From an uncultured Chloroflexia bacterium (GTDB lineage Bacteria; Chloroflexota; Limnocylindria; Limnocylindrales; CSP1-4), in NCBI GenBank assembly GCA_963725745.1, contig CAVRZS010000004.1, positions 538,576-602,575 of the forward strand: a DNA stretch of 64,000 bases. The letters are read 5' to 3'. The position numbers and the translations under genes are program-made. Shown piece by piece: positions 1 to 54,549 of the stretch (its first letter is position 1; every line of letters starts with the position of its first letter). Below the pieces are notes generated by a model that did not search any database, was not told the origin of the DNA, and worked only from the letters and a program-made list of their open reading frames with translations.

Positions 1-2789
1 TCGGGCAGCATCGACGACCCAGAATCCGCCAGGATCGCGATCGCCTCGTCGATCGCGCGCAAGCCTTCCGCCGGTCGCCCGGCACCCGCGCAGGCGATCG
101 CCTGCACAAACAGCAGGAACGGCCAGAAGATCGGCGGCGACCGGAGCTCGCCGTAGAGGCCGATGCCGAACTGCACCTCGGCCATCCCTTCGTCCGCGCG
201 GCCGAGGGCGACGTGGGCTGCGCCGCGCAGGACGTTGCCGACCGCGGTCCAGATCCGGAACTCGTGCTCCTGGGCCAGGTCAACCAGGCTCGTCGCGAGC
301 TCGAGCGTGATCTCCGGCTCTCGTCGCCAGAACCGGAGCAGGCCGGCATGGAACCGGGCATAGGCGGTCGTGAACGGGTGGTCGAGCGCAGCGGCGAGGG
401 CGAGCGCGGCTTCGGCGCGTTCGGCAGCTCGGTCGGGTCTGCCCAGCAACCACAGGGTGAAGGCAGACGTGGTGAGGCAGGACACCCGCGGGTCGTTGCC
501 CACGCGGACCGACTGGGCTGTCGCGGGCCGCTCCGGAAACAGGGCGATCGCCTGCTCGAAGTGTTCGAGCCCGCCTCGCAGGTCGTCGAAGCTCATGAGG
601 GTCGTACCAACGAGCAGGTGGCCGTCGATCTGCATCGCGGCATCGCCCTCGGCCTCGCCCAAGTCGAGGATCACCCTGCCGAGCTCCGCGGACTTGTCGA
701 GCTGGGCGCGGAACAGGTAGAGGCTGGCCAGCCCACGCAGGACCGCGAACTGCTGCCGGACGTCGGCGCCCTGCTCGAACCGCTCGAGCGCGCCGGCAAA
801 GGCCGCCTCGACTTCCGGGGTGAACCCTTTCGTGGTCATCAGCGCCCTGGCCAGCGTGGTCCGGAGCCCGATCTCCTGGTTGATCCGTTCGGGCGACGGG
901 GGAACGGCTTCGACCACGGCCAGCATGTCCGACGCGAGCCTGACCGTATCGAGGTACCAGCCGTGGGCATCGTCGAGCGCGAGGAGGGTCTTCGCCAGCC
1001 CGTCCAGGCGCCCGAGGTCGCGCGCCTCCACCCAGTACGTCCAGGCGATGCGCAGGTTCCCGACGTCGGCGTGGAGCGCCTCCAGGGCAGCCTCACGCCC
1101 GGCGCCCGTCAGCTGGCCGCGCAGGCGACGCGCCAGGTCCGCGTAGTACGTGGCATGAACCTCGCGAGTCCGGGACGCGAGGTCGGGGTGCTGGTCGAGC
1201 CGGTCGGCGGCGAACTCGTGGATCGTCTGGAGCATCGCGACCCGCGGCTCCCGACCCGGCCGGTCCACCCGGCGCAGGAGGCTCTTCTCGACGAGACCGG
1301 CGAGCACGTCGAGCACGTCGACCGCCTCTCCATCGACCGCGCCGACCTCGCCGACCACGGCCTGGATCGCGTCCACCTCCGCGTCCGCGAACACCGCCAG
1401 CAGCTCGAACAAGCGCTGTTCAGCGGGCGAGAGCAGCTCGTAGCTCCAGTCCATCGCCGCCCGCAGCGTCTGCTGGCGCTCCGGGAGGTCGCGCGGTCCG
1501 CTGCGCAAGAGCCCCAGCCGGTCGTCGAGCCGATCGCGAAGCACCTCCGGCGAGAACAGACGGAGCCGGGCGGCCGCGAGCTCGATCGCCAGCGGCAGGC
1601 CATCGAGCCGGCGGCAGATCTCCGCGACCGCGGCCGCGTTGTGGTCGGTGAGCTCGAATTCCGGACGGACGACGCGGGCGCGGTCGACGAACAGCTGCAC
1701 TGCGGCAACGTCGCGGATGTCCGCGGCCGTTACCTGCCCGCGGGCGTCCGGCGGCAGCGCGAGCGGCGGCACGGGGAAGAGCTGTTCTGCCCGGACGTGG
1801 AGCGCCTCGCGACTCGTCGCGAGCACCGTCAGCCCGGGGCAGTCGCTGAGCAGCTGGGCCACCACGGCGGCCGATTGGGTGACCTGCTCGAGGTTGTCGA
1901 GCACGAGCAGCATGCGTTGTTCCCGCAGCCGGTCGACGAGCTCGTCCTGGAGCGGCCGATCGATGATCTCGCCCAGGCCAATCGATCGCGCGATCGCGAC
2001 CAGCACCGCGTTCGTGTCATGGGCGCTGGCCAGGTCCACGAACGAGGCGCCGTCGCGGAACCTCGGCGCCAGGTCCGATGCGACCCGGATCGCGAGTGTC
2101 GTCTTGCCGGTCCCGCCTGGCCCGATGAGCGTCAGCAGGCGGACGGAGCCATCCGCGAGGCGTTCGGTGATCTGGGCGATCTCGTTCTGACGACCGATCA
2201 GGGCCGCGACGCGCGAGGGCAGGTCTGCCCCGGGCTGACGAGCGGTGACCAGCGGCGGGAACTCCGACGGGAGGTCCGGGTGGACGAGCTGGTAGAGGTG
2301 CTCGGGCCGGCCGAGGTCCCGGAGGTGGTGCTCCCCCAGGTCGCGGAGCCCGGCCCCGCCCGGCAGCCGCTCGGTCGCCAGCGCACCCGCCGACGCGGAC
2401 AGCAGTACCTGGCCGCCGTGCCCCGCCGCCATGATGCGGGCGGCGCGGTTGACGGTGGTGCCGAAGTAGTCGCCGTCACGCCGCTCGGCCTGGCCGCAGT
2501 GAATGCCCATGCGGACCCTGAGCGGGCCGGTCTCGCCCCACGACTCGGCGATCAGCCCGCGCTGGGCCTCGAGGCTCGCCGTCGCCGCATCGATCGCCCC
2601 GGCGAACACGGCCATCATCCCGTCGCCGGTGGTCTTGACCACGGTGCCGCGGGCTGCCTCGATCGCGTCACGCAGGATCGCGTCGTGTCGGCCCAGCGCG
2701 GCCTTCATCGCGTCCGGGAACTGCTCCCAGAGCCGCGTGCTGCCCTCGAGGTCGGTGAACAGGAACGTGATGGTTCCAGTCGACGGCAT
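1..2789 (-). CDS. Class III adenylate/guanylate cyclase domain fused to an AAA/NB-ARC-type (STAND) ATPase; the C-terminal part runs off the left edge
   Basis: Absent from the ORF track because it has no stop inside the window. Reverse-strand translation from ATG 2789 (GTG 2795 also possible) reads MPSTGTITFLFTDLEGSTRLWEQFPDAMKAALGRHDAILRDAIEAARGTVVKTTGDGMMAVF...RVRMGIHCGQAERRDGDYFGTTVNRAARIMAAGHGGQVLLS (cyclase homology domain). It continues with LLTLIGPGGTGKTTLA (Walker A) and MLLVLDNLEQV (Walker B-like). All listed minus ORFs from 839 to 2479 are in another frame, consistent with this frame staying open to position 1. Confidence 0.85.
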   Translation of the reverse strand, partial: MPSTGTITFLFTDLEGSTRLWEQFPDAMKAALGRHDAILRDAIEAARGTVVKTTGDGMMAVFAGAIDAATASLEAQRGLIAESWGETGPLRVRMGIHCGQAERRDGDYFGTTVNRAARIMAAGHGGQVLLSASAGALATERLPGGAGLRDLGEHHLRDLGRPEHLYQLVHPDLPSEFPPLVTARQPGADLPSRVAALIGRQNEIAQITERLADGSVRLLTLIGPGGTGKTTLAIRVASDLAPRFRDGASFVDLASAHDTNAVLVAIARSIGLGEIIDRPLQDELVDRLREQRMLLVLDNLEQVTQSAAVVAQLLSDCPGLTVLATSREALHVRAEQLFPVPPLALPPDARGQVTAADIRDVAAVQLFVDRARVVRPEFELTDHNAAAVAEICRRLDGLPLAIELAAARLRLFSPEVLRDRLDDRLGLLRSGPRDLPERQQTLRAAMDWSYELLSPAEQRLFELLAVFADAEVDAIQAVVGEVGAVDGEAVDVLDVLAGLVEKSLLRRVDRPGREPRVAMLQTIHEFAADRLDQHPDLASRTREVHATYYADLARRLRGQLTGAGREAALEALHADVGNLRIAWTYWVEARDLGRLDGLAKTLLALDDAHGWYLDTVRLASDMLAVVEAVPPSPERINQEIGLRTTLARALMTTKGFTPEVEAAFAGALERFEQGADVRQQFAVLRGLASLYLFRAQLDKSAELGRVILDLGEAEGDAAMQIDGHLLVGTTLMSFDDLRGGLEHFEQAIALFPERPATAQSVRVGNDPRVSCLTTSAFTLWLLGRPDRAAERAEAALALAAALDHPFTTAYARFHAGLLRFWRREPEITLELATSLVDLAQEHEFRIWTAVGNVLRGAAHVALGRADEGMAEVQFGIGLYGELRSPPIFWPFLLFVQAIACAGAGRPAEGLRAIDEAIAILADSGSSMLP

Positions 2790-2876: not shown

Positions 2877-3284
2877 CTACGGGAGCACGATGAACCGACC
2901 GCCATCGAGGGGGCGCACGACCTCGAAGTGCCGACGATCGAGCGTGACGATTGTCTTCGTTCGATACCTGGCCGCGAGGACGACGATCGAGGCGTCGGCC
3001 ACGCCGATCGACTGGTCCCCATAGCGCTCCACCAGGCGGCGCGCGGAGTCCAGATCCGTCGCATCGAACGATGGCAGCTCCCACGCGCCGCCGGCCAGCT
3101 CGGTCAAAGCGGCCAACTCGGCGTCCATGCCGTGTCGCGATGCGGCGAGGTAGTCCGTCTCTGCGACGACGTACGGCGAGACCACCAGCGGCTCGGTGGA
3201 GCCCTCCAGCACCTCGGCGACGGCCGCGTGGTCCGGCTCTCCGCTGTCGAAGTAGGCGAGGAGGGCGCTCGTATCGACGATCAC
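2877..3284 (-). CDS. vapC: PIN-domain toxin (VapC family)
   Basis: GTG at 3284 gives VIVDTSALLAYFDSGEPDHAAVAEVLE...LVVSPYVVAETDYLAASRHG...VVLAARYRTKTIVTLDRRHF, which is the PIN acidic-residue pattern. The start overlaps the upstream antitoxin stop as GTGA (3281-3284). Confidence 0.85.
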   Translation of the reverse strand: MIVDTSALLAYFDSGEPDHAAVAEVLEGSTEPLVVSPYVVAETDYLAASRHGMDAELAALTELAGGAWELPSFDATDLDSARRLVERYGDQSIGVADASIVVLAARYRTKTIVTLDRRHFEVVRPLDGGRFIVLP

Positions 3285-3499
3285 CTGTCGCCGAACCCGC
3301 GCAGGTGTTTGTCCGCGTCCCGAGCGATCGGCGCCTTGCCCGCGTACAGCCCGCCCTTCGGGCGCGGCCGGGCGTCGCCCATGACCGCCTGGCGGATCGA
3401 CTCGCGGATGACCTCGGCCTCCGAGACGCCTCGCTGGAGGGCAGCACGGCGAAGCGCGGTCTTGAGTTCGAGGGGCAGATAGACCGTCGTCTTGTCCAT
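3281..3499 (-). CDS. vapB: Ribbon-helix-helix antitoxin (VapB/CopG type)
   Basis: 72-aa track ORF MDKTTVYLPLELKTALRRAALQRGVSEAEVIRESIRQAV shows a beta-strand/helix/helix RHH pattern. It lies directly upstream of, and is translationally coupled to, the PIN gene. Confidence 0.8.
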   Translation of the reverse strand: MDKTTVYLPLELKTALRRAALQRGVSEAEVIRESIRQAVMGDARPRPKGGLYAGKAPIARDADKHLRGFGDR

Positions 3500-3582
3500 G
3501 GATATATGGTACCACCGGTGGTACCAGCGACGACACGTTCACCGTCCCCGGCGGTCTGGCCTGCCCGACTACGATCGGAGCC

Positions 3583-4155
3583 GTGCTCATCCGCCACGAG
3601 ACCCTCCGCCGTATCGCGTCGGGCGAGGTCGACACCGTGTTCCGCCGCCAGCGCCGGCCAACCGTCAAGGCCGGCGGCACGCTGCGGACGATGATCGGGA
3701 TGCTCGCGATCGACACCGTCGAGCGCATCGAGCCCGGGGACGTCACCGAGTCCGACGCGCGGCGCGCGGGCATGGCCCGGGACGAGATCCTGGCGATGCT
3801 GGCCGCCAAGACCGAGGGCGAGTGCTACCGCGTCCGGCTCCACGTCGCGGGCGACGACCCACGGATCGCGCTCCGTGAGGACGCGGCGCTCGACGAGGCG
3901 ACGGTGACGGCGCTCCGCGCGCGGCTGGACCGGCTGGACGCCGCGAGCTCCTGGGGCCCATGGACGCGGCCGACGCTGCGGTTGATCGCCGAGCGGCCCT
4001 TCGTCCGCGCGCCAGACCTGGCCGCCTCGATGGGTCGCGACACCCCGTCGTTCAAGGATGACGTCCGCAAACTCAAGGCCCTGGGCCTGACGATCAGCCA
4101 CAACCCGGGCTACGAGCTATCTCCACGCGGCCGGGCGCTTCTCGACCGGCTCTGA
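3583..4155 (+). CDS. ASCH (PUA-like) domain protein with a C-terminal winged-helix-like tail
   Basis: 190-aa track ORF (GTG start). The N-terminus LIRHETLRRIASGEVDTVFRRQRRPTVKAGGTL...YRVRLH resembles ASCH beta-barrel proteins. The C-terminus RPFVRAPDLAASMGRDTPSFKDDVRKLKALGLTISHNPGYELSPRGRALL resembles a wHTH. Confidence 0.6.
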   Translation: MLIRHETLRRIASGEVDTVFRRQRRPTVKAGGTLRTMIGMLAIDTVERIEPGDVTESDARRAGMARDEILAMLAAKTEGECYRVRLHVAGDDPRIALREDAALDEATVTALRARLDRLDAASSWGPWTRPTLRLIAERPFVRAPDLAASMGRDTPSFKDDVRKLKALGLTISHNPGYELSPRGRALLDRL

Positions 4156-4305
4156 CCCACGGGCGGAGTGGTCTGGGGTCGCTGCGCATCCGCCGAGACG
4201 AACTCCTACGCGATGGTGTTCCGTCGCGGTCGGTCGATCTCGCCTCACGAAGGGGGGTACGAAGCGACTACCACGGCGGGCTCCGAGCCTTGCTACGTTG
4301 CGGAC

Positions 4306-13576: not shown

Positions 13577-13615
13577 CGACGGGCGCCGCCCGGCGACGAT
13601 CTCGGGAGGCGCACG

Positions 13616-14591
13616 ATGACGGCGCACGCGATGACGACGACCTCGGCGATCGAGGTCCGCGGCCTGCGGAAGTCGTACGGCAAGCAGGTCGTGCTCGACG
13701 GAATCGACCTCGATGTCCCGGAAGGCACCGTGTTCGCGCTGCTGGGCCCGAACGGCGCCGGCAAGACGACGGTCATCCACATCCTCTCGACCCTGATCGC
13801 CGCGGACGCGGGCGAGGTCCGCATCGCGGGCTTCGACGTCGCGCGCGAGCCCGACGCCATCCGGGGCGTGATCGGCCTCACGGGCCAGGTGTCCGCTGTC
13901 GACGGCCAGTTCACAGGCGAAGAGAACCTGCGCCTCATGGCCGACCTCGAGCATCTCGGCAAGGAACGGGGACAGCGCCGCGTCGCGGAGCTGCTGGAAC
14001 GGTTCGAGCTCGTCGCGGATGCCGGCAAGCCCGCCGCGACCTACTCGGGCGGCATGCGCCGGCGCCTGGACCTCGCCATGACGCTGGTCGGCGACCCGCG
14101 GATCATCTTCCTCGACGAGCCCACGACCGGCCTCGATCCCCGCAGCCGGCGGGTGATGTGGGACATCGTGCGCGAGCTGGTCGCGGGTGGCGTCACGATC
14201 CTGCTCACCACCCAGTATCTCGAGGAGGCCGATCGGCTCGCGAGCCGGATCGCCCTGCTCGACGCGGGCCGGATCGTCGCGCAGGGCACCCCGGCCGAGC
14301 TCAAGCGGCTGGTGCCGGGCGGCAGCGTGCGGCTCGAGTTCTCCGATGCGGCGATGCTCGACCGGGCGGCCGGGGCGCTGCACGGCGCGATCCCGCGACG
14401 ACCAGAACCTGGCCCTCCAGGTGCCCAACGACGGCGGCGTGCACTCGCTTCGGGCCCTGCTCGACCGGCTGGACGCCGAGGCCATCGAGGTCGAGGGGCT
14501 GGCCATCCGGTCCGCGGATCTCGACGACGTGTTCCTGTCCCTCACCGGCCGCGAGAACGGCCAACTCGACGACAAGAAGGTGCCGGCATGA
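13616..14591 (+). pseudogene. ABC transporter ATP-binding protein (DrrA/ABC-2 type), interrupted by a +1 frameshift near 14388-14400
   Basis: GPNGAGKTT (Walker A), YSGGMRRRL (signature) and IIFLDEPTTGLD (Walker B) are in the frame of 13616. The conserved C-terminus RDDQNLALQVPNDGG...LDDVFLSLTG is in the frame of track ORF 14187..14591. That ORF's TGA overlaps the permease ATG (ATGA at 14588). Confidence 0.8.
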
Positions 14592-15409
14592 CCGCCTACA
14601 TGCTCACGGACTCCACGACCATGCTCCGGCGGAGCCTGCGGCGGATGCGCCGCTACCCGTCGCTGACGTTCTTCATTGCGGTGATCCCGGTCCTGCTCCT
14701 GCTCCTGTTCGTGTACGTGTTCGGTGGGATGCTCGGCGCCGGACTCGGGGGGCCCGGCCAGCCGGCAGGCCCAGCCGGAGCCGCCGTCGGACGCGAGGCA
14801 TACCTCGCGTACATCATCCCGGGCATCCTGCTGATGACCGCCGTCGGCGCCGGGCAGGGGACGGCGATCACCGTCGCGATGGACATGACCGCCGGGATCA
14901 TCGCGCGCTTCCGAACGATGTCGATCGCTCGTGGCGCCGTCCTGGGCGGCCACGTCTTTGGCAGCGTCATCCAGACGGCGATCGCGATGCTGATCGTGAT
15001 CGTGGTCGCCCTCCTGGTCGGGTTCCGGCCGACGACCGAACCGCTGTCCTGGTTGGCTGCGCTGGGGCTCCTCGCCCTGACCTCAATCGCCGTGAGCTGG
15101 CTGTCGGTCGGGATGGGGATGGTCACGGGCAGCGTCGAGACCGCCAGCAACATCCCGATGATCCTGACCCTGCTGGTGTTCCTGAGCTCGGCCTTCGTCC
15201 CGACGGCATCGATGCCCGACCCGCTGCGCTGGTTCGCCGAGCACCAGCCGTTCACGCCGATCGCGGAGACGCTGCGCGGCCTGCTGTTCGGCACGCCGAT
15301 CGGGGACAGCGGCATCGTCGCCGTGGCCTGGTGCGTCGTGATCTCGGTCGGCGGCTACCTCTGGGCGCGCCGTCTCTACGAGCGGGCGCCGATGCGCGTC
15401 GCGGCGTAG
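14588..15409 (+). CDS. ABC-2 type transporter permease
   Basis: ATG 14588 gives MTAYMLTDSTTMLRRSLRRMRRYPSLTFFIAVIPVLLLLLFVYVFG..., with about six hydrophobic segments typical of DrrB-like permeases. It happens to be in the same frame as 13616, which creates the artificial 597-aa track ORF. Confidence 0.85.
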   Translation: MTAYMLTDSTTMLRRSLRRMRRYPSLTFFIAVIPVLLLLLFVYVFGGMLGAGLGGPGQPAGPAGAAVGREAYLAYIIPGILLMTAVGAGQGTAITVAMDMTAGIIARFRTMSIARGAVLGGHVFGSVIQTAIAMLIVIVVALLVGFRPTTEPLSWLAALGLLALTSIAVSWLSVGMGMVTGSVETASNIPMILTLLVFLSSAFVPTASMPDPLRWFAEHQPFTPIAETLRGLLFGTPIGDSGIVAVAWCVVISVGGYLWARRLYERAPMRVAA

Positions 15410-16939: not shown

Positions 16940-17175
16940 TGGGGCGATAGGTGGTGCCAGGCCGCACCGCCGCTGCAAGCGAATGCCCGTCCGGGGCGAT
17001 CCGGGGGGAGGGTCAGGCCAGCGCCCGGCGCTCACGTACGGCCTACTCGGATCCTTCGCGGCGATCCATCGGTGGCCCGCTCCGACGTCGTCGGGGCGTC
17101 CTCGGCCAAGGGCTGGAGAGCCTGATTCGGGATGGCCGATGCCACCGATCGGTCCGATCGGCACTTCCGTCGGGC
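16940..17175 (+). promoter_or_regulatory. Candidate structured leader (M-box/Mg2+-riboswitch-like sequence islands) upstream of the P-type ATPase
   Basis: The roughly 480-nt non-coding gap 16778..17255 contains, in order, GAUAGGUGGUGCC, CGCUGC..GCCCGUCC, GGGUCAGGCCAG, GGCUGGAGAGCC and CGAUGCCAC. These recall M-box islands (UAGGUGAGGC, CGCUGC.GCCC...GUC, GGGUCAACAG, GCUGGAUGC, CCUAUGCCAU). The similarity was judged by eye only. Confidence 0.3.
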
Positions 17176-17255
17176 ATGCCGTGGCGGTGACGCTCGGGTG
17201 CGTACCGGCAGAGGTCGCCCCGACCACGCCGGATCGACGAGCTGGAACCAGGAAC

Positions 17256-20031
17256 GTGAGCGCGTTCGCAGACACCGGATCCTCGGGCGTCCAGATCGAG
17301 GACGTCGCCGCGAGGGACCCTGTCCGGGACCCCTGGGCGGCCAATGTCCCGGAGGTCGTTGCCGCGCTCGGCTCCGACGGCGCCCGGGGCCTCGACCCCG
17401 ACGAGGCTCGGCGGCGCCTGTTCGCTGTCGGGCCGAACGAGCTCGCGGAGCGCGCCGCCAAGTCCGCGTGGCGCCTCCTAGCTGAGCAGTTCACGAACGC
17501 GATGATCCTGGTCCTGCTCGGGGCCGCCGCGATCACCGCGGCCATCGGCGACCTGAAGGACACGGCCCTCATCCTGGTCATCGTCGCGCTCAACGGGATC
17601 ATCGGATTCGTCCAGGAATACAGGGCGGAGCAGGCGATGGACGCGCTGAAGCGCATGACCAGTCCGTCAGCGCGGGTCATTCGTTCCGGCGTCACGAGCG
17701 TCCTCCCGGCGGCCGAGCTCGTCCCCGGCGACCTCGTGCGCCTCGACGCGGGGGATGTCGTGACGGCCGACATGCGCCTCGTCGAGGCTCGATCCCTCCG
17801 GATCAACGAGGCAGCCCTCACCGGCGAATCGGAACCGGCCAGCAAGATCACGGCCGAGCTTCCCGATGTCACACCCGCGGTCCTCGCCGACCAGCGGAAC
17901 ATGGCCTTCAGCGGCACCGCGGTGACCTATGGACGCGGCCTGGGCATCGTCGTGGCGACCGGGATGAAGACGGCACTGGGACGGGTCGCCGAACTCCTCG
18001 AGGAGCGCGGCAGCAGCCAGACGCCGCTCCAGCGACGGCTGTCGACCCTCGGCAAGCGACTGGCGGTCGCGGCCTTCCTGGTCTGCATCTTCGTGTTCAT
18101 CAGTGGCGTCGCCCGTGGCGAACCGGCCGACGTGATGTTCCTCGCGGCAGTGAGCCTCGCAGTCGCGGCTATCCCGGAGGGACTGCCGGCCGTCGTCACG
18201 ATCGCCCTGGCGCTGGGCGCCCGACGGATGGCCCGGCGACACGCCCTCGTTCGCAAGCTGCCGGCGGTCGAGACCCTCGGGTCGGTCACCGTGATCTGCA
18301 GCGACAAGACCGGCACCCTGACCCAGAACCGAATGCTCGCCGAACGGGTCTGGACCCCGAACGGCGACTATCGCGTGACCGGCGATGGCTACGCGCCGAC
18401 CGGACAACTCCATCCGGAGCCGGCGGCCGACGCCGCCCTGGGCCGACTCGCGCGCGTGGCCGCCGCCTGCAACGACGCATCGCTCCACGCCCCGGTCGCC
18501 AGCAATGAGCCGTGGACCATCAGCGGGGATCCGACTGAGGCTGCGCTCCTCGCACTCGCCGGAAAGCTCGAGGTGGATCTACAGCTGCTCTCCGCCGAAT
18601 ACCCGCGCGTCGAGGAGCTGACCTTCGATCCTCAGCGACGACGGATGGCGACCATCCACACGGGCGGTGCGAAGGTCTGGGTTGCTGTGAAGGGCGCCCT
18701 GGAGGCAATCGGACCCCTCCTCGATGCGACCGACGCCGGCCTGCTGCGGCAGGCGGAGCGCGTCGCCGAGCGTTACGCAGCCGACGGATACCGCGTGCTG
18801 GCGTTCGCGGAGCGCATGATCGACGACGTCCCCGCCCAGCTCGACGACGCCGAGCATGGTCTCCATCTTCTGGGCATCGTCGCGATGGCGGACCCGCCGC
18901 GTGAGGCCTCCGCCCCGTCAATCGCGGCCTGCCGTCTGGCGGGCATCACGCCGATCATGATCACCGGCGATCACCCCCTGACGGGCAACGCGATCGCGCG
19001 ACGGATCGGCGTCCTGCGCGACGGCAGACGCAGCCTGACCGGCGCCGAGCTCGAGGAGCTCGACGACGCCGCCTTCGAATTCGATCGTGGCCGATGTTGC
19101 CGTGTATGCGCGGACCAACCCCGAACAGAAGCTCCGCATCGTTGATGCCTGGCGACGCCGTGGCGCGATCGTCTCGATGACGGGCGACGGCGTGAACGAT
19201 GCACCAGCCCTGCGACGGGCCGACATCGGCGTCGCGATGGGCGTCACCGGGACCGAGGTGAGCAAGGAGGCGGCGGACATGATCCTCGCCGACGACGATT
19301 TCGCGACGATCGTCGCCGCCGTCGAGGAAGGCCGCCGGATCTACGACAACATCCGGCGCTTCGTGCGCTACCTCCTGACCACCAACTCCGCCGAGATCTG
19401 GGTGATGACGCTCGCCCCGTTCCTGGGCCTCCCGTTCCCACTCCTCGCCGTCCAGATCCTATGGGTCAACCTCATCACCGACGGGCTGCCGGCCCTCGCC
19501 TTGGGCGTGGAGCCGGCGGAGCGCGGGACGATGCGACGGCCGCCGCGGCCGCCGTCTGAATCGATCTTTGCCCGCGGCCTGTGGCAACACACGATCTGGG
19601 TCGGACTGTTGATGGCTTCCGCCGCGCTCGCGGTCCAGGGGTACGCGATCGGCGAGGGCTGGCCGTGGCAGACCATGGTCTTCGCCACCCTGGCCTTCCT
19701 GCAGCTCGGGCATGCCTTGGCCATCCGGTCGGAGACGGACAGCCTCTTCCGGCTCGGCCTCAGGTCGAACCTGCCGCTGACGATCGCCGTCGCTGCCACC
19801 TTCGTCGTGCAGATGGCCCTCATCTACCTGCCGGGCCTGCAGCCGATCTTCGGGACGGTCCCGCTGACCCTTCCCCAGCTGGCCCTCGTTCTGGTCGCCT
19901 CCACCGTTGGCTTCGCGGCGGTCGAGGTCGAGAAATGGGTCGGGCGCCGGAGGTCCGTGACGCGTCACGCGCCAACCGCGAGCGACACGGGAGGTTCAGA
20001 GATCCGGGCGGCGAGTCGCACGCCGTCGTGA
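17256..20031 (+). pseudogene. Cation-transporting P-type ATPase (type II, Ca2+/Mg2+-like), interrupted by a +1 frameshift near 19076-19087
   Basis: Track ORF 16875..19145 carries [20 protein letters not shown] and the N domain, and ends ...ELEELDDAAFEF followed by junk. Track ORF 19087..20031 continues (I)VADVAVYARTNPEQKLRIVDAWRRRGAIVSMTGDGVNDAPALRRADIGVAMG plus the C-terminal TM helices. The start is placed at GTG 17256 (VSAFADTGSS...DPWAANVPEVVAALGSDGARGLDPDEARRRL); the upstream part of the ORF is non-coding-like. Confidence 0.85.
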
Positions 20032-29927: not shown

Positions 29928-29937
29928 CGGCACCGCC

Positions 29938-30729
29938 ATGAACCTCGATCGCTACGTCGACCGCGAGAGCCCCGTCCACCGCGCCGACGCGCGGGTGAAG
30001 TTCATCGCCACGATCGCGTTCATCGTCACGGTGAGCCTGCTGCCGATCGGCTCGTTCGTCGCCCTCGTGATCGCGGAGCTCGCGGTCATCGGTGTCTCGG
30101 TCGTCGCCCGCCTGGGGCCCCTTCGGCCCGCGCGGCGGGCGTTCCTGGCGGCGCCGTTCCTGCTCGCGGCGGTGCCGTTGATCTTCACCAAGTCCGGCGA
30201 TCCGCTGGGCACGATCGACCTGGGGCCGCTCACCCTGACCATCAGCGGCGAGGGGCTCGTGCAGTTCGCGACCATCGCGCTCAAGAGCTGGATCAGCGTC
30301 CAGGCGGCGCTGCTGCTCGCGTTCACGACGCCGTTCCACGACCTCGTCGACGGGCTCCGCCAGCTCCACCTGCCGCGGATCATGGTCGCGATCATCAGCT
30401 TCATGTACCGCTACCTCGCCGTGCTGTCCGAGGAGGCGACGCGGATGTCGCGGGCGCGCGCGTCCCGCTCCGCCCAGCCCGACGGCAAGGGCGGCGGCTC
30501 GATCGCGTGGCGGGCGAGGGTGACCGGATCGATGGTCGGCTCGCTGTTCCTCCGCTCGTACGAGCGCAGCGAGCGGATCTACGCGGCCATGCAGGCGCGC
30601 GGCTTCGAGGGCGAGTTCCGCCACCTCCACAGCCGGGCGCTGCGACCCGTCGAGTACGCCTGGCTCGCGGTGATCCTGCTGCTGTGCACGGCGTTCACGA
30701 TCGTCGGTCCGCCTGTGGGTGCCGGTGGC
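29938..30729 (+). CDS. cbiQ: ECF transporter transmembrane (T) component CbiQ
   Basis: MNLDRYVDRESPVHRADARVKFIATIAFIV...SRARASRS...RSERIYAAMQARGFEG matches typical CbiQ/EcfT motifs. No stop codon separates it from the cbiO coding sequence, which is in the same frame; the end is placed at the ATG of cbiO. Confidence 0.75.
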
Positions 30730-31555
30730 ATGAGCGCGGTCGAGCAGCCGGGACACGTGCACGAGCACGTCCACGCCCACGAGCACGCGGTCGGCCACAC
30801 GCACGACCACGACGAGCCGGCCCACCCGCACGCCGGCGTCGCCTCGACGGCCGTCGTGATCGAGCACCTTCATTACCGCTATCCCGACGGCTTCGAGGCG
30901 CTCAAGGGGCTCGATCTCGTCGATCGGGGCAGGCGAGAAGGTCGCCCTCGTCGGGCCCAACGGGGCCGGCAAGAGCACGTTGATGCTCCATCTCAACGGG
31001 ATCTACGAGCCGAGCCACGGCAGCGTGCGCATCGGCGACATGGTCGTCGACCGGTCGACCGTGCGCCGGATCCGGGCGAAGGTGGGCCTCGTGTTCCAGG
31101 ATCCCGACGACCAGCTGTTCAGCCCGACGGTGTTCGAGGACGTGGCCTTCGGGCCGCTGCACATGGGCGTTGCCGAGGCCGAGATCCACGACCGGGTCGA
31201 GCGTGCCCTGGCGGCCGTGGGCATGGCCGGCAGCGAACGGCGCATGCCGCACCGCCTGAGCCTCGGCCAGCGCAAGCGGGTGGCGCTCGCCACCGTGCTG
31301 TCGATGGACCCGGAGGTGCTGGTGTTCGACGAGCCGTCGGCGGGGCTGGATCCACGGGGCCGCCGCGAGCTGATCGGGGTGCTCGAGGGCCTGCGTCAGA
31401 CGCTGCTCGTCTCGACCCACGACATGCGTCTCGTGGACGAGGTCTTCGCACGCACGGTCGTCATGGACGACGGCCGGATCGTGGGCGACGGGCCGACCGG
31501 CTCGATCCTGGGCGATGAGCGGTTCCTGCACGACCACGGGCTCGAGCGACCGTAG
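30730..31555 (+). pseudogene. cbiO: ECF transporter ATPase CbiO with a His-rich N-terminal tract, interrupted by a +1 frameshift near 30918-30923
   Basis: MSAVEQPGHVHEHVHAHEHAVGHTHDHDEPAHPHAGVASTAVVIEHLHYRYPDGFEALKGLDLV is in the frame of 29938. The next segment IGAGEKVALVGPNGAGKSTLMLHLNGIYEP...LSLGQRKRVALA...VLVFDEPSAGLD is in the frame of track ORF 30980..31555. The junction reads ctc gtc g atc ggg. Confidence 0.8.
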
Positions 31556-47194: not shown

Positions 47195-48408
47195 TCAGCC
47201 CGTCGCTTCGAGCTCCGTCCAGGTTCGGACCGGCATCCGCGGGTCGAAATACGCGAAGGTGCCCTTGCCCAGGGCCTTGGCCGCATACATTGCCGCGTCG
47301 GCGCGGACCAGCAGGTCCTTGGCCACAGCGCTTCCCTCGTGGCCGGGCCCGTGGCGCACAGCGACGGCGATGCCGATCGACCCATCGACGACGATCGAAC
47401 GCCCGCCGAGCTGGATCGGTCGCCGCAGCTCGCCGAGGATCCGCTGGGCGGCCGCGGAGGCCTCCTCCTCGGCGACGACGTTGACGAGCAGGATCGCGAA
47501 CTCGTCGCCGCTCTGGCGGCCGACGACGTCGCCCTCCCGAACCGCGCGCGCCAGGCGCTCCGCGACGCGACACAGGATGTCGTCCCCGGCCGCATGGCCG
47601 AACGTGTCGTTGACCCGCTTGAAGTCGTCGAGGTCGACGAACAGGAGCGCCACGCGACCGAGCTCGCGTCCCTGCCGCGCGAGGGCTCGCTCCAGGTGAT
47701 CGCGCAGCAGCACGCGATTGGCCAGGCCGGTCAGCGGATCGTGCAGCGCATCGTGGATGAGCTGCGACTCCAGCCGCTTGCGGTCCGTCGTGTCGACCAG
47801 CAGGCCCTGCGAGACTCGCCGCCCGCTCCGGGTATCGTCCGCCATCGCGAAGGCCTCGTCGCGGACCCAGACCTCCGAGCCGTCTCGGGCCAGCATCCGG
47901 TACTCCGCGCGGAGCGGCTCGCCGGTGCGCCAGTGCGCGTCGTACGCCGCGATCGCCGCCGATCGGTCCTCGGGATGGATGCGACTGGGCCACAGCTCGG
48001 GGTCGTCGACGAGCTCGTCGGGCCCGTAGCCGAGGATGCCGGTGATCTGCGGGCTCATGTAGGCGAGGCGGCCGCCGTCGGAGACGTCGGGGTCGGCCAT
48101 GTCGATGTAGACCGCCGCGGGCACGTGCTCGACGAGCACCCTGAGGCGCGTTGCCGAATTCGCGCCTCCCGCGTCGAACGCTCCAGGCCGGCCGCCGCGG
48201 CACGCAGACGCACGAGCAGGATCGCCCCGCAGCCGAGCACGAGGGCCAGCGCACAGACGGCGATCACAATCCGCGCGGACGTCGAGCCGATCACCGTCGC
48301 GCCGAGGATCGACGCGATGCCCAGCACCCCGAGAACGATGGCGCCGCCGAACAAGCCGACCACGTGAACGCCGTCGGGCACGCCGAACCGTTGCGTGGGC
48401 TGATCCAC
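47195..48408 (-). pseudogene. Membrane-anchored PAS-GGDEF diguanylate cyclase, interrupted by a frameshift (-1 / +2 type) near 48160-48175
   Basis: The N-terminal TM part MDQPTQRFGVPDGVHVVGLFGGAIVLGVLGIASILGATVIGSTSARIVIAVCALALVLGCGAILLVRLRAAAAGLERSTREA is in track ORF 48055..48408. The body is in the frame of track ORF 47195..48538: NSATRLRVLVEHVPAAVYIDMADP... (PAS), HDPLTGLANR, and RQSGDEFAIL (GGDEF variant SGDEF). Confidence 0.8.
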
Positions 48409-48552: not shown

Positions 48553-49116
48553 GTGGACCAGCGAGGTCTCGTCGAGCGAGCGCAGCGGGGCGATCATGAC
48601 GCCTTCGCGGTGCTGGCCGGCGCGTCCATCGCGCGGCTGGACTCGGCCGCCCGCCTCATCGTCCGGGACCAGGACCTCGCGCGGGACGCGGTCCAGGACA
48701 CGCTCGTCCGCTGCTGGCGCGACCTGCCCACGTTGCGCGACCCGGTCGCCTTCGACGGCTGGCTGCACCGGCTCCTCGTCCATGCCTGTCTCGACCTCGT
48801 TCGCCGTCGACGCCGACGGGTGATGGAGGTCGAGCTCACCTCGCTGCACTCGCCGGCGATCGGCGACTTCAGCGGCCAGGTGATCGACCGCGACCTCCTT
48901 GATCGCGCGCTGTCCGGGCTCGCCCCGGACTGGCGCGCGATCGTCGTCCTGCACTACTTCCTCGAGGTGCCGCTGCCGGAGGTGGCGGCAAGCCTCGGGA
49001 TCCCGCTCGGGACCGCGAAGTCGCGGCTGCACCGGGCGATCGGCGTCCTCCGCACGGCCGCCGGCAACGACGCCGTCCAGACCGGCATCGCGATCGCGGA
49101 ACGGAGGCCGGCATGA
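48553..49116 (+). CDS. ECF (group 4) RNA polymerase sigma factor (second copy)
   Basis: 187-aa track ORF. Region 2 reads DAVQDTLVRCWRDLPTLRDPVAFDGWLHRLLVHACLDLVRRR. Region 4 reads IVVLHYFLEVPLPEVAASLGIPLGTAKSRLHRA. The stop overlaps the next gene start (ATGA at 49113). Confidence 0.9.
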   Translation: MDQRGLVERAQRGDHDAFAVLAGASIARLDSAARLIVRDQDLARDAVQDTLVRCWRDLPTLRDPVAFDGWLHRLLVHACLDLVRRRRRRVMEVELTSLHSPAIGDFSGQVIDRDLLDRALSGLAPDWRAIVVLHYFLEVPLPEVAASLGIPLGTAKSRLHRAIGVLRTAAGNDAVQTGIAIAERRPA

Positions 49117-50426
49117 CCCAGTTCGACCGCTTCGAGCGCGAGCTCCCCGTGGCGCTGGGCGACGTGGCCGGCACCGGGGCGCCCGACTACCTCACCGACA
49201 TCCTCGGGCGGACCGCCCGCACCCGGCAGCGACCCGCCTGGGCCTCCCTCGAAAGGTGGCTCCCCATGGACCTCGCAACCCCGCGGGCGGCGACCGCCCG
49301 TGTCCCGTGGCGCGCGGTGGCCGCGCTCGCCCTGATTGCCTTCCTGCTCGTTGCCCTGGTGGCCATCTACGCCGGTGGCCAACGCCATGTCCCGCCGCCA
49401 TTCGGCCCGGCCGCCAACGGCCTGATCCCGTACGACGTCGACGGCGACATCTTCGTCGCCGACCCGATCGACCGGCGCTAGTCGCCTCCTCTCCGGCGGG
49501 CCCGCAAACGACTACATCCCGACGCTTCTCTCCCGATGGCACCCACGTCTCCTTCCTCCGGGCGTCGTCCGACTGCCCCACCCCCGGCGACGTGTGCCCG
49601 GGGGGCGAGGAGATCATGGTCGTGGCCGCTGACGGCAGCGGCGCGCACGCGATCAGCGGCCAGCCGCTCGTCGGCCTGCGGGTCGCGAACTGGGTCCCCG
49701 ACAGCCGCAACGTCCTCGTCGGCTACGTCGACGACGGCGTGTTCCGGCTGGTGGAGTTGCCGATCGACACCGGAACGCCTCGCCATGGTCGCCGAGGGTT
49801 TCGAAGTCGATTGCGGCCGTGTTCCGACCCGCCGGCCGGCGACGAGCTCCTCGTGCGTGGCCTCGTGGACGGCAACGTCGGGCCTGTATCGCATGAACGC
49901 GGACGGCTCGGACCTGCGGCTGCTCGCGAACGCCGCCACGCCCGGCGAGACGCTCGGCGACAACCAGGACCTCAACTTCCCGGCCTATGCGCCCGACGGC
50001 AGCCGGATCTTCTTCAACCGCTACGTCCCGGCGGCCCAGACGATCCAGGCCTGGGTCATGAACCCCGATGGCTCCAACCCGCACCGGTTCAACCAGGCGG
50101 GACCCGTCTGCTGCTGGTGGGAGGGCGAGATGGCGCCGTCGCCTGACGGCAAGTCGGTGCTGATGTGGCGCGTGTCACCCGACAGCGAGGACGGTGGCGG
50201 CATCACCGTGTATCCGGCGGACGGGACCGGCCCGGGACGGTTGATCGGCCCCGACCTGGCGGATACCGGCCACTGGGCCTGGGCACCCGACTCGACCCGC
50301 GTCCTCGTGAACCACAACGACGCCGCGCAGGGCGGCCAGGTGCTGATCGACCCTGCCACCGGCACCTGGGAACCGGCACCGTGGCATGACAACGCCGAGC
50401 CCGACTGGCAGCGCACCGCGCGCTGA
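49113..50426 (+). pseudogene. Anti-sigma / TolB-like beta-propeller paralogue carrying multiple +1 frameshifts
   Basis: The N-domain plus TM is in track ORF 49113..49481 (...VPPPFGPAANGLIPYDVDGDIFVADP). TGASRLLSGGPANDYIPT is in the +1 frame. FSPDGTHVSFLR...VELPIDTGTP is in the frame of ORF 48899..50146. LYRMNADGSDLRLL...SPDGKSVLMW...DWQRTAR* is in ORF 49536..50426. The blades align with the intact paralogue at 32473..33747. Confidence 0.75.
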
Positions 50427-52048: not shown

Positions 52049-53503
52049 CCGTCGACCGCGACGCCGTCGAGGCGGCGGTTCGCGACCTCGACCTCGAGGA
52101 GCTCGCCGGGCGCCGCTGGTTCGCGTCCAAGGGCCTCGTCCCATCGTCCGCGCGGCTCGCGCACGCGTTCGTCGTCACCGGCGGTTCCGTGTTCGCGCTC
52201 GTCGACCTGCGCATCGGCGAGCGTTGGGACCGCTACGCCCTCGCGTTCACAGCGGCCGATGACGAGCTGCGCGAGGCCGCCGACGACGACGGCGCCTGGC
52301 GGGCGCTTGCCGCTGCGATCGCGCACGGGCGGACCATCGGCGCGCTGCAGCGCGAGGGCGAGGCGTCGCCGAGCGCCGCCCTGGTGTGCCGGCCCGCGCC
52401 GGCCTTCGCGGACCTGTGGGCGGAGCGTTGACGGCTCCCTCGGCGATCTTGCCGATGCCGACGCGCGGCCGCTCGGCCGCGACCAGTCGAACACGTCCGT
52501 GGTGCTCGGCGACCGGCTGCTGCTCAAGGCCTATCGCCGTATCCAGCCGGGCCTCAACCCCGACCTCGAGCTGACGGCCTTCCTGTCCGAGGAGGCCGCG
52601 CTCGAGGCCGTGCCGCGGCTCGCGGGCTGGGCGGAGGTCGTCACCCGCGAGGATGGGGCGTCGACGGTCGCGATGCTGCAGCAGTTCGTTGCGAACGGGT
52701 CGGACGCGTACGAGGCGACGGCCGAGCGGCTGGCGTCGCTCGTCGCCGACCCGGGCCGAGCGGACCTCGAGGCGGCCTCGGACATCGCCGAGGACCTCGG
52801 CCTCATGGTCGCCGATCTGCACGCGGCTCTCGCCGCGGCGCCCGGCGACGTGCCCGATCTCGCGCCGCGCCCCGCGACCCACGACGAGCTCCGGGCGTGG
52901 CGCATGGATGCGGTCCGCCAGCTGCATGCATCGATCGCGGCGCTCGCCGCCACCGACCCGAAGGCCGCGGACACGTTGCGCGGCTGGGCTCCTGAGATCA
53001 CCGCCACGGTCTCGCGGTTCGAGGCGGTCGCGACCACCCCGTTGGTGATGCGCATCCATGCCGACCTGCACCTGGGCCAGGTCCTGGTCGCGCCCGAGGG
53101 CTATCGCGTGATCGACTTCGAGGGCGAGCCCCTGCGCCCGATCGAGGAACGACGGCGCCTCGACTCGCCGCTGCGCGACGTGGCCTCGATGCTGCGGTCG
53201 CTGGACCACGTCGCGCGGAGCGCACGCCGCCGCGCGACGGACCGCGCGGGCGGGCGCATCGAGCGCCCCGGGCTCGACGTCGAGGCGTGGATCGATCGTG
53301 CCCGAGACCGGTTCATCGCGGCCTATGCCGGACGGCTCGCCCGGGCCGGTGCCCCGATCGTCGTCGACCTCGACCTGCTCGACGCCTTCGAGGTCGCCAA
53401 GGAGTCCTACGAGTTCGAATATGCGGCGACGGTGCTACCGTCGTGGCTCTGGGCACCGCGCGACGGGATGCGCTGGTTGCTGTCGCGCAGGGAGGCGTCA
53501 TGA
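52045..53503 (+). pseudogene. mak: Maltokinase (Mak/Pep2-like), interrupted by a +1 frameshift near 52426-52430; start codon unclear
   Basis: The N-terminal cap ...LEELAGRRWFASKGLVPSSARLAHAFVV...PAFADLWAER* is in the tail of track ORF 51466..52431. The kinase body is in track ORF 52259..53503: DGSLGDLADADARPLGRDQSNTSVVLGDRLLLKAYRRIQPGLNPDLELTAFL...RIHADLHLGQVLV...VIDFEGEP. The junction reads gag cgt t gac ggc. Confidence 0.8.
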
Positions 53504-54549
53504 CCGAGGCTGTTCGCCCCGAAGAGTCCCCGCAGCCGACGGTCGACGAGGCGCCGGATCGCTCGGCGGACCTGCTCGCGGACATCCTCGCGAGCCCCGA
53601 TGAGCTAGCGGCGGTCCTCGACCTGCATGCGCGGGCCATCGCCGGTTTCGACGAGGCGCTGTTCGACCATCCGCGGTGGCGCTTTCTCGGCATGGGCAGC
53701 TCGCGGCTCGCGGCCCTCGACGCGGCGTCGCGGTTGCGCGCCGTCGGCGTGGATGCGGCGGCCGAGGTCGCCTCGGGCGCCTCCCCGAGCGAGGCCCGGG
53801 CCGACACCGTTGCGGTCGTGATCTCGAACTCGGGGCGGACGCCCGAGGTCGTCGCGGCTGCCGACCGCCATCGCGACGGGTCGCATGTGATCGCCCTGAC
53901 CGGGGATCCGAAGTCACCCTTGGCGGGCCGCGCCGACGCCGTGCTGCAGCTCGTTGCCCAGCGTGGCGAGTCGGCCGGCATCGCCAACCTGTCGTTCCGG
54001 TCGACGGTCGCCGCGCTCTCGATGATCGTCGACCGCATCGAGGGACTGACGGCCGGCGCCGGGCTCGCCGCCGCCATTCCCGTGCTCGAGGCCCTGCTCG
54101 CCGGTCGTACGGACTGGCTGGGCTCGGCCGCCGACGTCCTCGGCGAGGGCCGCGAGGTGCACGTCCTCGCCGACGCGTCGCGGATCGGCATCGCCGAGCA
54201 GGCGGCCCTCGTGCTCCGCGAGGGACCGCGGATCTCGGCGCACGCGTTCGACACCGGAGACTGGCTCCACGTCGGCCTGTACACCCTGCTCCCCGGCGAC
54301 CCCGTCCTGCTGCTCACGGGCGCGGCCGCGGACGAGGCGGCCGTGGCGACCACGGTCGCCCGCGGCGGTCGGATCGTCGCGGTCGGCGGCAAGGTGAAGG
54401 ACGCGGTCGCCTCGATCCCGCTCCCGGACTCGGTCCTGGCCGACGATCGACTGCGCGCGCTCGTGGAACCCGCGGTGACGGAGCTGATCGCCGCGGAGCT
54501 GTGGCACCGGGCGAGCGCGACGACGCTGAGCGAGCATTCGCCGGCCTGA
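53500..54549 (+). CDS. SIS-domain sugar isomerase/aminotransferase-like protein
   Basis: ATG 53500 overlaps the mak stop (ATGA). Contains RWRFLGMGSSRLAALDAASRLRAVG...VAVVISNSGRTPEVV...VIALTGDPKSPLA, which is the SIS pattern. Confidence 0.8.
   Translation: MTEAVRPEESPQPTVDEAPDRSADLLADILASPDELAAVLDLHARAIAGFDEALFDHPRWRFLGMGSSRLAALDAASRLRAVGVDAAAEVASGASPSEARADTVAVVISNSGRTPEVVAAADRHRDGSHVIALTGDPKSPLAGRADAVLQLVAQRGESAGIANLSFRSTVAALSMIVDRIEGLTAGAGLAAAIPVLEALLAGRTDWLGSAADVLGEGREVHVLADASRIGIAEQAALVLREGPRISAHAFDTGDWLHVGLYTLLPGDPVLLLTGAAADEAAVATTVARGGRIVAVGGKVKDAVASIPLPDSVLADDRLRALVEPAVTELIAAELWHRASATTLSEHSPA

Follow-up and report, generated by a model that had tools for sequence, protein, structure and literature searches.

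The ECF Sigma Gene and Its Downstream Partner

The window is the whole stretch of DNA that we analyzed, 64,000 nucleotides of contig 4 of a Limnocylindrales MAG (here G000), which comprises 7 contigs and 3.52 Mb with a CheckM completeness of 75%. Its forward strand holds at 48553..49116 an intact gene of the ECF-type sigma-70 family, as the preliminary description of this DNA had maintained; the product, of 187 amino acids, contains sigma-70 regions 2 and 4 only (Pfam Sigma70_r2, Sigma70_r4_2, and Sigma70_r4, that is PF04542, PF08281, and PF04545). The nearest relative, a 38.9-kb ENA metagenome contig (L038), has a sigma gene that likewise encodes 187 residues; its near identity to the window holds for this gene and for residues 1-66 of the following product. 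The TGA stop codon and the start codon of the gene that follows overlap in the tetranucleotide ATGA at 49113-49116, and this second gene, which runs on the same strand from 49113 to a stop codon at 50424-26, is translationally coupled to the ECF sigma gene.

Once the frame changes described below are read through, the downstream gene encodes a protein composed of a highly conserved cytoplasmic N-terminus of 50 residues, one transmembrane helix, and a PD40/TolB-like propeller. The N-terminal part (49113..49469, forward strand, frame 0) shows a GC3 of 0.92 and 78% identity to residues 1-119 of the orthologue in the congener G015; within it lie the conserved cytoplasmic segment DYLTDILGRTARTRQRPAWASLERWLPM and the single hydrophobic helix AVAALALIAFLLVALVAIYAGG. 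The arrangement closely recalls the pairs formed by ECF sigma factors and membrane anti-sigma factors with an extracytoplasmic sensor: The upstream gene has regions 2 and 4 of sigma-70, stop and start overlap in ATGA, the same pair and its synteny recur in relatives, and the downstream product joins a short cytoplasmic N-terminus and one transmembrane helix to an external beta-propeller. It may differ from such pairs in its N-terminus, residues 1-119 of which gave no hit to a known anti-sigma domain (ASD/ZAS, RskA, and similar) in the copies of Pfam and NCBIfam searched; the orthologues bear the precomputed label PF26549 in the protein collection. From position and topology alone, therefore, the protein may be considered a putative anti-sigma factor.

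With regard to the propeller, the corrected protein reaches 26.5 bits for PD40, above the Pfam gathering cut-off of 20.9 (the orthologue P0010 scores 48.7 bits), and in this respect it resembles the TolB/PD40 beta-propeller proteins. Orthologues bear the source name "Tol biopolymer transport system component." The similarity to the TolB propeller is weak, however, for the corrected protein scores 29.7 bits against a TolB equivalog cut-off of 343, and the product is membrane-anchored and sigma-linked rather than a periplasmic component of the Tol-Pal system.

The family is large in Limnocylindrales, with 919 homologues having E <=1e-10 among the 8,000 candidates scored. A search with the 435-aa read-through protein retrieved approximately 40 full-length orthologues, all uninterrupted, which are 424-438 aa long and 55-66% identical at 100% coverage; some of them carry the label Candidatus Limnocylindrales. 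Nothing in the protein collection exceeded 66% identity over the full length, while the N-terminal fragment P0042 reached 77%. The congener G015 has an uninterrupted orthologue of 432 aa in a syntenic position, flanked by the sigma gene and the aldehyde-dehydrogenase gene just as it is here. The genome itself contains at least 12 paralogous propeller genes; with identities of 55-66%, the orthologues are far better guides to the reading frame than a paralogue of about 30% identity. The gene is best explained as an ordinary and probably functional representative of a family of PD40 membrane proteins that are linked to ECF sigma genes in Limnocylindrales.

Frame Changes within the Propeller Gene

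Read against intact orthologues, the deposited sequence of the gene at 49113-50426 requires three skips of an extra base that are unavoidable, and most likely six. The frame-0 ORF that begins with the ATG at 49113 ends early, at a TAG at 49479-81, and the order of frames along the gene is 0, 1, 2, 0, 1, 2, and 0, each change being due to one additional base. The net surplus thus amounts to 6 bases, which is why the N- and C-terminal parts are both in frame 0.

All the features of the shifted region lie on the forward strand. The first shift (49467..49470, frame 0 to 1) has the form ATC-G-ACC, in which the extra G, recognized by comparison with the DNA of L038, is not in a homopolymer. It is followed by the frame-1 segment TGASRLLSGGPANDYIPT (49471..49524), which aligns with the TGxTRLLVGGPxNDYxPx of the orthologues. 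The second shift (49513..49525, frame 1 to 2), which seven of eight orthologues place at 49525, also has a nonhomopolymeric context, ACGCTTC. Beyond it extends the segment FSPDGTHVSFLR...ELPIDTGTP in frame 2 (49526..49780), which includes FSPDG...IDTGTP; orthologue alignments and a GC3 of 0.95-1.00 support its frame, and it contains the first PD40-like blades plus a CPxPGDxCPGGE loop common to most orthologues. The third shift (49775..49787, frame 2 to 0) holds at frameshift penalties <=16 only and opens the frame-0 segment AMVAEGFEVD (49782..49811), the counterpart of xLLAEGLxADW and SVIAEMSDADW in orthologues. The fourth (49812..49818, frame 0 to 1) is possibly a T to TT change in GATTGCG, after which the frame-1 segment AAVFRP (49813..49830) aligns with AAFRP and AVYRP. 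The fifth (49824..49831, frame 1 to 2) is possibly a CC to CCC change in CGACCCGCC; its correction gives FRPPAGDELLVRG, identical to the same stretch of the orthologues P0003 and P0011. With some orthologues as guide, the fourth and fifth shifts fuse into one skip of 2 bases. Orthologue alignments then define the frame-2 segment PAGDELLVRGLVDGNVG (49832..49882), which terminates in the sixth shift (49871..49883, frame 2 to 0), situated inside GGCAACGTCGGGCCTG and seen at every penalty. The remainder, LYRMNADG...EPDWQRTAR* (49884..50426), is intact in frame 0; it constitutes the C-terminal two fifths of the propeller, matches Pfam PD40, and is 63% identical to the G015 orthologue.

The number of shifts was assessed by frameshift-aware alignment of protein to DNA. 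The G015 orthologue needs six one-base skips at penalties of 8-16 and three at 20-25, and eight further orthologues, aligned in the same way, need at least three in each case and five or six when the penalty is moderate. Across these eight, the shifts at 49467-70, 49513-25, and 49871-80 are constant, while the middle group (49775-87, 49812-18, and 49824-31) is rendered either by three separate +1 skips or by a +1 combined with a +2. If a merged 2-base skip is counted as two, six shifts are preferred with nine of nine orthologues at penalties <=16. A sliding GC3 plot, which is very informative at a G+C of 71%, provides independent support for the frame changes read from the protein segments: The coding frame is 0, then 1 (~49470-49520), then 2 (49526-49780), then mixed, and again 0 from ~49884. 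Consequently, the earlier claim of at least three and up to six shifts in the same direction is sustained, as are its approximate coordinates, and the reconstruction then derived from a paralogue proves essentially right.

Across the six sites, the orthologues and L038 specify these residues without any change of frame; L038 has no interruption at any of them and carries two +1 shifts of its own elsewhere. The six lesions span 414 of the 1314 bp, for which uniform placement gives p ~0.014 (calculated as n*r^(n-1)-(n-1)*r^n, with r=0.315 and n=6 lesions). Their density, about one shift per 69 bp, is ~70 times the detectable genome average and thereby bears out the previous impression of a local cluster far above the window-wide rate; at 197 shifts per Mb, by our own arithmetic, 0.08 would be expected in 414 bp.

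Conservation of the Corrected Protein

Substitution-level decay (lost conserved residues, nonsense codons, and eroded codon bias) was looked for in the corrected gene and was not found. The corrected protein agrees at all 41 of the columns that are >=90% conserved in 119 homologues, including the eight that fall in the shifted region; its frame has a GC3 of 0.88 and contains no stop codons. The mean identity of the patch to 30 orthologues is 0.51, within the family range of 0.40-0.54, and the ratio of patch to flank identity is 0.76, within a range of 0.60-0.84, so that the patch is not an outlier in this comparison of 30 orthologues. The same region is the most variable one in the whole family. 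Segmental dN/dS ratios of the patch are 0.53-0.56 versus G015 and L038, compared with 0.36 between L038 and G015, all at a dS near saturation. The lesions themselves, finally, are all 1-bp insertions confined to the 414-bp span, rather than the spread lesions, mixed indels, and deletion bias by which a pseudogene is recognized.

Frameshift Load of the Assembly

To evaluate the locus against its genomic background, we derived a codon-usage model from 385 long ORFs in G000 and applied a Viterbi gene/frameshift parser. Its genes can be closed by nothing other than a stop codon, and any change of frame that no stop accompanies is charged 12 nats. Calls produced by gene junctions (ATGA overlaps such as that at 49100) were filtered by the length of the flanks and by how soon the abandoned frame runs into a stop, the filter being calibrated on control genomes. 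In the patch under study, this HMM detects only one of the six shifts (at 49772) and divides the gene in two at the stop at 49481; having missed five of six here, it must under-count dense clusters everywhere.

Even so, G000 yields 694 filtered calls, or 197/Mb, of which 520 (75%) are +1. Comparable loads are found in two other congeners of low completeness, G001 (2 contigs, 73% complete, 220/Mb, with 14 of 22 calls being +1) and G015 (30 contigs, 71% complete, 280/Mb, with 25 of 28). Very different are the cleaner congeners G006, a single contig 92% complete that has 3 calls in 400 kb (7.5/Mb), and G025, with 9 contigs and 95% completeness, for which 100 kb contain 2 calls (20/Mb), one of them +1. 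A completeness of 92-95% thus goes with 7.5-20 calls per Mb and one of 71-75% with 197-280: The frameshift load tracks assembly quality, not phylogeny, and the +1 bias is a property of the noisy assemblies among these. The calls of G000 affect 412 of the 2,995 genes that were parsed and are clustered, with a variance-to-mean ratio of 3.8 in 5-kb bins, some of which hold 9-16 calls; one gene of 1,210 codons has 14 shifts, 13 of them +1. So few contigs combined with a completeness of only 75% make an odd combination.

Conserved Genes and Duplicated Loci

The nature of these calls becomes clearer when the called bases are removed and the resulting proteins are scored against family models. FtsH, which has two shifts near its Walker A motif, then matches positions 5-597 of the 598 of TIGR01241 with 856 bits, while a GroEL copy interrupted by seven shifts, where contig 4 begins, matches all 526 positions of TIGR02348 (1-526) with 810 bits. 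The shifted genes further include a P-type ATPase and two ABC ATPases, two of these lying in the window: The P-type ATPase, with a shift near 19083, and an ECF-transporter ATPase, with a shift near 30907 in its Walker A region, both give full-length matches after correction. Genes so important, with products so well preserved, are not decaying pseudogenes.

The evidence is most direct at loci that the assembly contains twice. Self-BLAST pairs C2:1-17897 with the start of C3 (97.2% identity, 75 gap openings), C2:31145-41364 with the end of C4 (95.8%, 37 gap openings), and C1:10085-18400 with C4:117626-125916 (84.8%, 286 gap openings). Frameshift calls are distributed unevenly between such copies, there being none in C2:31145-41364 versus 10 in its duplicate at the end of C4, and none in C1:10085-18400 versus 21 in the internal duplicate C4:117626-125916. 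Realignment of the latter pair reveals 135 indel events in 8.2 kb (~1/61 bp), mostly of 1 bp and mostly outside homopolymers; in the noisy patches of duplicated loci, only about one in four of the single extra bases lies next to an identical base. This density of events is close to that of the patch considered here (1/69 bp), and contig 4 thus demonstrably has internal stretches whose consensus is of near-raw quality. The locus at 49113-50426 has no second copy in the self-BLAST of the assembly, and a search for contigs encoding exactly its sigma or aldehyde-dehydrogenase protein found none on record.

Origin of the Frame Changes

Taken together, these observations pose a question: Why does a gene whose product is so well conserved appear broken six times within a third of its length? 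The explanation that we favor, with a probability of about 85%, is that the six frameshifts represent a consensus-error patch of a noisy assembly. The shifts would be erroneous insertions of single bases that persist where the consensus is poorly resolved, in a metagenome assembly of noisy long-read style, and the organism itself would possess one uninterrupted ORF of ~435 codons. The patch would have arisen in the same way as the other clustered frameshifts of the assembly, from a platform or a consensus step presumably prone to insertions; a possible cause is low coverage, or a mixture of strains, where the gene varies between strains. Shifts elsewhere in the assembly have been shown to be clustered, mostly +1, and copy-specific, and to reach indispensable genes. 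It is the lesions in FtsH and GroEL, the contrast between clean and shifted duplicates, and a density that tracks low CheckM completeness that favor an assembly cause. Residual indel errors of long-read MAGs split ORFs and reduce CheckM completeness. G000 resembles MAGs with such PacBio CLR or Nanopore errors in being contiguous (7 contigs) and yet 75% complete, in having hundreds of single-base frameshifts in conserved genes, and in showing its errors in patches and at contig ends, with redundant contigs 85-97% identical that differ by many 1-bp gaps. An error model restricted to homopolymers does not account for the ATC-G-ACC and ACGCTTC sites, which are not homopolymer extensions. We presume that the +1 bias and the nonhomopolymeric contexts fit errors of CLR type, or those due to mixed strains, better than the homopolymer deletions of Nanopore. 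Against a consensus error speak the extreme density of the patch even for this assembly (~70 times the detectable average), the paralogues (at least 12) that would make the loss of one copy tolerable, and the somewhat higher dN/dS of the patch versus G015 and L038.

There is also a case for a genuine but very young pseudogene, one of many sigma-linked PD40 sensors that was lost through real single-base insertions: The family is highly redundant, so that a loss would be tolerated, pseudogenes typically carry more than one lesion, and dN/dS is slightly raised in the patch versus the two relatives. Bacterial pseudogenes show a deletion bias, and in them substitutions far outnumber indels. Hence, a pseudogene old enough to have accumulated six indels should have acquired many substitutions, some nonsense codons, and an excess of deletions, none of which is seen; instead there are six insertions, without deletions, larger indels, or surplus amino-acid changes, limited to one third of the gene. 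Moreover, the same type of lesion occurs ~700 times in the assembly, FtsH and GroEL included, and is missing from clean duplicate copies, whereas, if the control rate held for G000, real frameshifts would account for only ~4% of calls of this kind (7.5 vs 197/Mb). We consequently regard this origin as unlikely. Of the two causes put forward in the preliminary description, an error-prone patch of the assembly is the one that gains strength from the ~700 clustered and mostly +1 shifts, while the decay of a redundant paralogue is disfavored. A more specific version, in which the insertions are real and a recent burst of them in the strain-variable blades of the propeller inactivated one ECF-linked PD40 sensor gene, seems very improbable.

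A different possibility is that the full-length protein is obtained by recoding, either through repeated +1 ribosomal frameshifting or through decoding of CGGN quadruplets. Every shift is indeed +1, their sum restores the starting frame, the bias to +1 extends to the whole genome, and a CGGC quadruplet can be read at two sites (~49470 and ~49831). The six sites share no motif, however, and four of them have no CGG at the shift; at the two sites with CGG, moreover, the quadruplet reading agrees less well with the orthologues than a simple insertion does, FRPPAGDELLVRG matching exactly in contrast to FRPAGGDELLVRG. A CGGN quadruplet reading and a common slippery motif were discarded on these grounds. 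Furthermore, orthologues and the closest relative, L038, use one continuous frame, with the two shifts of the latter at other places, the assembly contains certain loci in both a clean and a shifted copy, and cleaner congeners show no excess of frameshifts. The chances of recoding therefore appear negligible. There remains the reading with only three frameshifts (~49470, 49525, and 49880), according to which 49781-49831 would be a divergent, Arg-rich linker in frame 2. The drop to three shifts at penalties >=20 and the crowding of the middle three within 50 bp are in its favor; yet AMVAEGFEVD and AAVFRP match the orthologue consensus xLLAEGLxADW and AVYRPP, the frame-2 version RHGRRGFRSRLRPCSDP matches nothing, and all nine orthologues prefer six shifts at penalties <=16. 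While this reading is doubtful, the choice between three and six is a question of count that leaves the cause unchanged.

Implications

The value of the present analysis lies mainly in quality control: G000, a species-representative MAG, and at least two congeners, G001 and G015, contain hundreds of spurious frameshifts. Any pseudogene, gene fusion, split gene, or recoding signal that such a genome seems to show is suspect and calls for confirmation from reads before it is accepted. Spurious frameshifts also explain how assemblies that are otherwise very contiguous come to have a low CheckM completeness. Were the six insertions real after all, they would hint at a local mutational process that favors insertions and acts on a sensor domain. 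The gene itself is an ordinary representative of a large family of sigma-linked PD40 membrane proteins that is specific to the lineage, and its N-terminal domain lies outside the copies of Pfam and NCBIfam that we searched.

Divergence and Conservation within the Propeller Gene

In the closest relative, a metagenome contig (ENA ERZ25039492 contig_28515), the orthologue of the sigma-linked propeller gene (3001-4295) carries two +1 shifts of its own, at ~3589 and ~4115, sites that differ from the six of the window gene. Nucleotide identity between this contig and the window falls from ~95% to ~75% at ~49310 of the window, within the gene, a step that suggests either a recombination boundary or an extracytoplasmic domain that varies among strains. 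The cytoplasmic N-terminus of the sigma-linked family, DYLTDILGRTARTRQRPAWASLERWLPM (49113-49270), is very highly conserved across the orthologues P0001-P0034, and no model matched it in the copies of Pfam-A or NCBIfam that were searched. It may constitute an anti-sigma-type domain of Limnocylindria that is undescribed or has been described only recently.

Frameshifts in Other Genes

Frameshift calls also fall in other genes of the window: a DrrA-like ABC ATPase (13613-15409; call at ~14393), a P-type ATPase (17253-20031; ~19083), the ECF-transporter ATPase CbiO (29929-31555; ~30907, in the Walker A region), a membrane PAS-GGDEF protein (47195-48387; ~48180) and a stretch at 52439-54549 (~53436) that is possibly the junction of two genes. 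The calls in the ATPases were confirmed, for the corrected products match their family models over the full length. Like the source genome, G000, the congener with an intact orthologue, G015, is a noisy assembly: it has 280 frameshift calls per Mb, +1 in 25 of 28, and the aldehyde dehydrogenase lying beside its intact orthologue is split across two frames (2-1541, minus strand, of locus G015:C6:43557-47087).

Redundancy of the Source Assembly

The assembly of G000 is redundant, with overlapping or duplicate stretches among its seven contigs (C1-C7): C1 is a second copy of C4:114-126 kb, C6 is a second copy of C5:1.640-1.652 Mb, and 1-bp indels are numerous between duplicate copies. The window's own contig opens, outside the window, with a mosaic (C4:1-18000) in which loci present elsewhere recur as diverged second copies: GroEL shares 87% identity with C3:433046-434616, a P-type ATPase 91% with window 17116-19963, and a further block 92-96% with C3:37851-44227. 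This region, which contains 20 frameshift calls, looks like second-strain or low-coverage sequence attached at the contig end. Searches of the whole genome in six frames did not find the motifs RHGNKG of RpoB, NADFDGD of RpoC or KKPNSA of ribosomal protein S12, nor did any EF-Tu-sized gene of the genome contain GH[VI]DHGK; it seems that the rpoBC and str-operon region is missing from the assembly, or that its motifs are disrupted. Because C2 overlaps both the start of C3 (17.9 kb, 97.2% identity) and the end of C4 (10.2 kb, 95.8%), C3, C2 and C4 could probably be joined.
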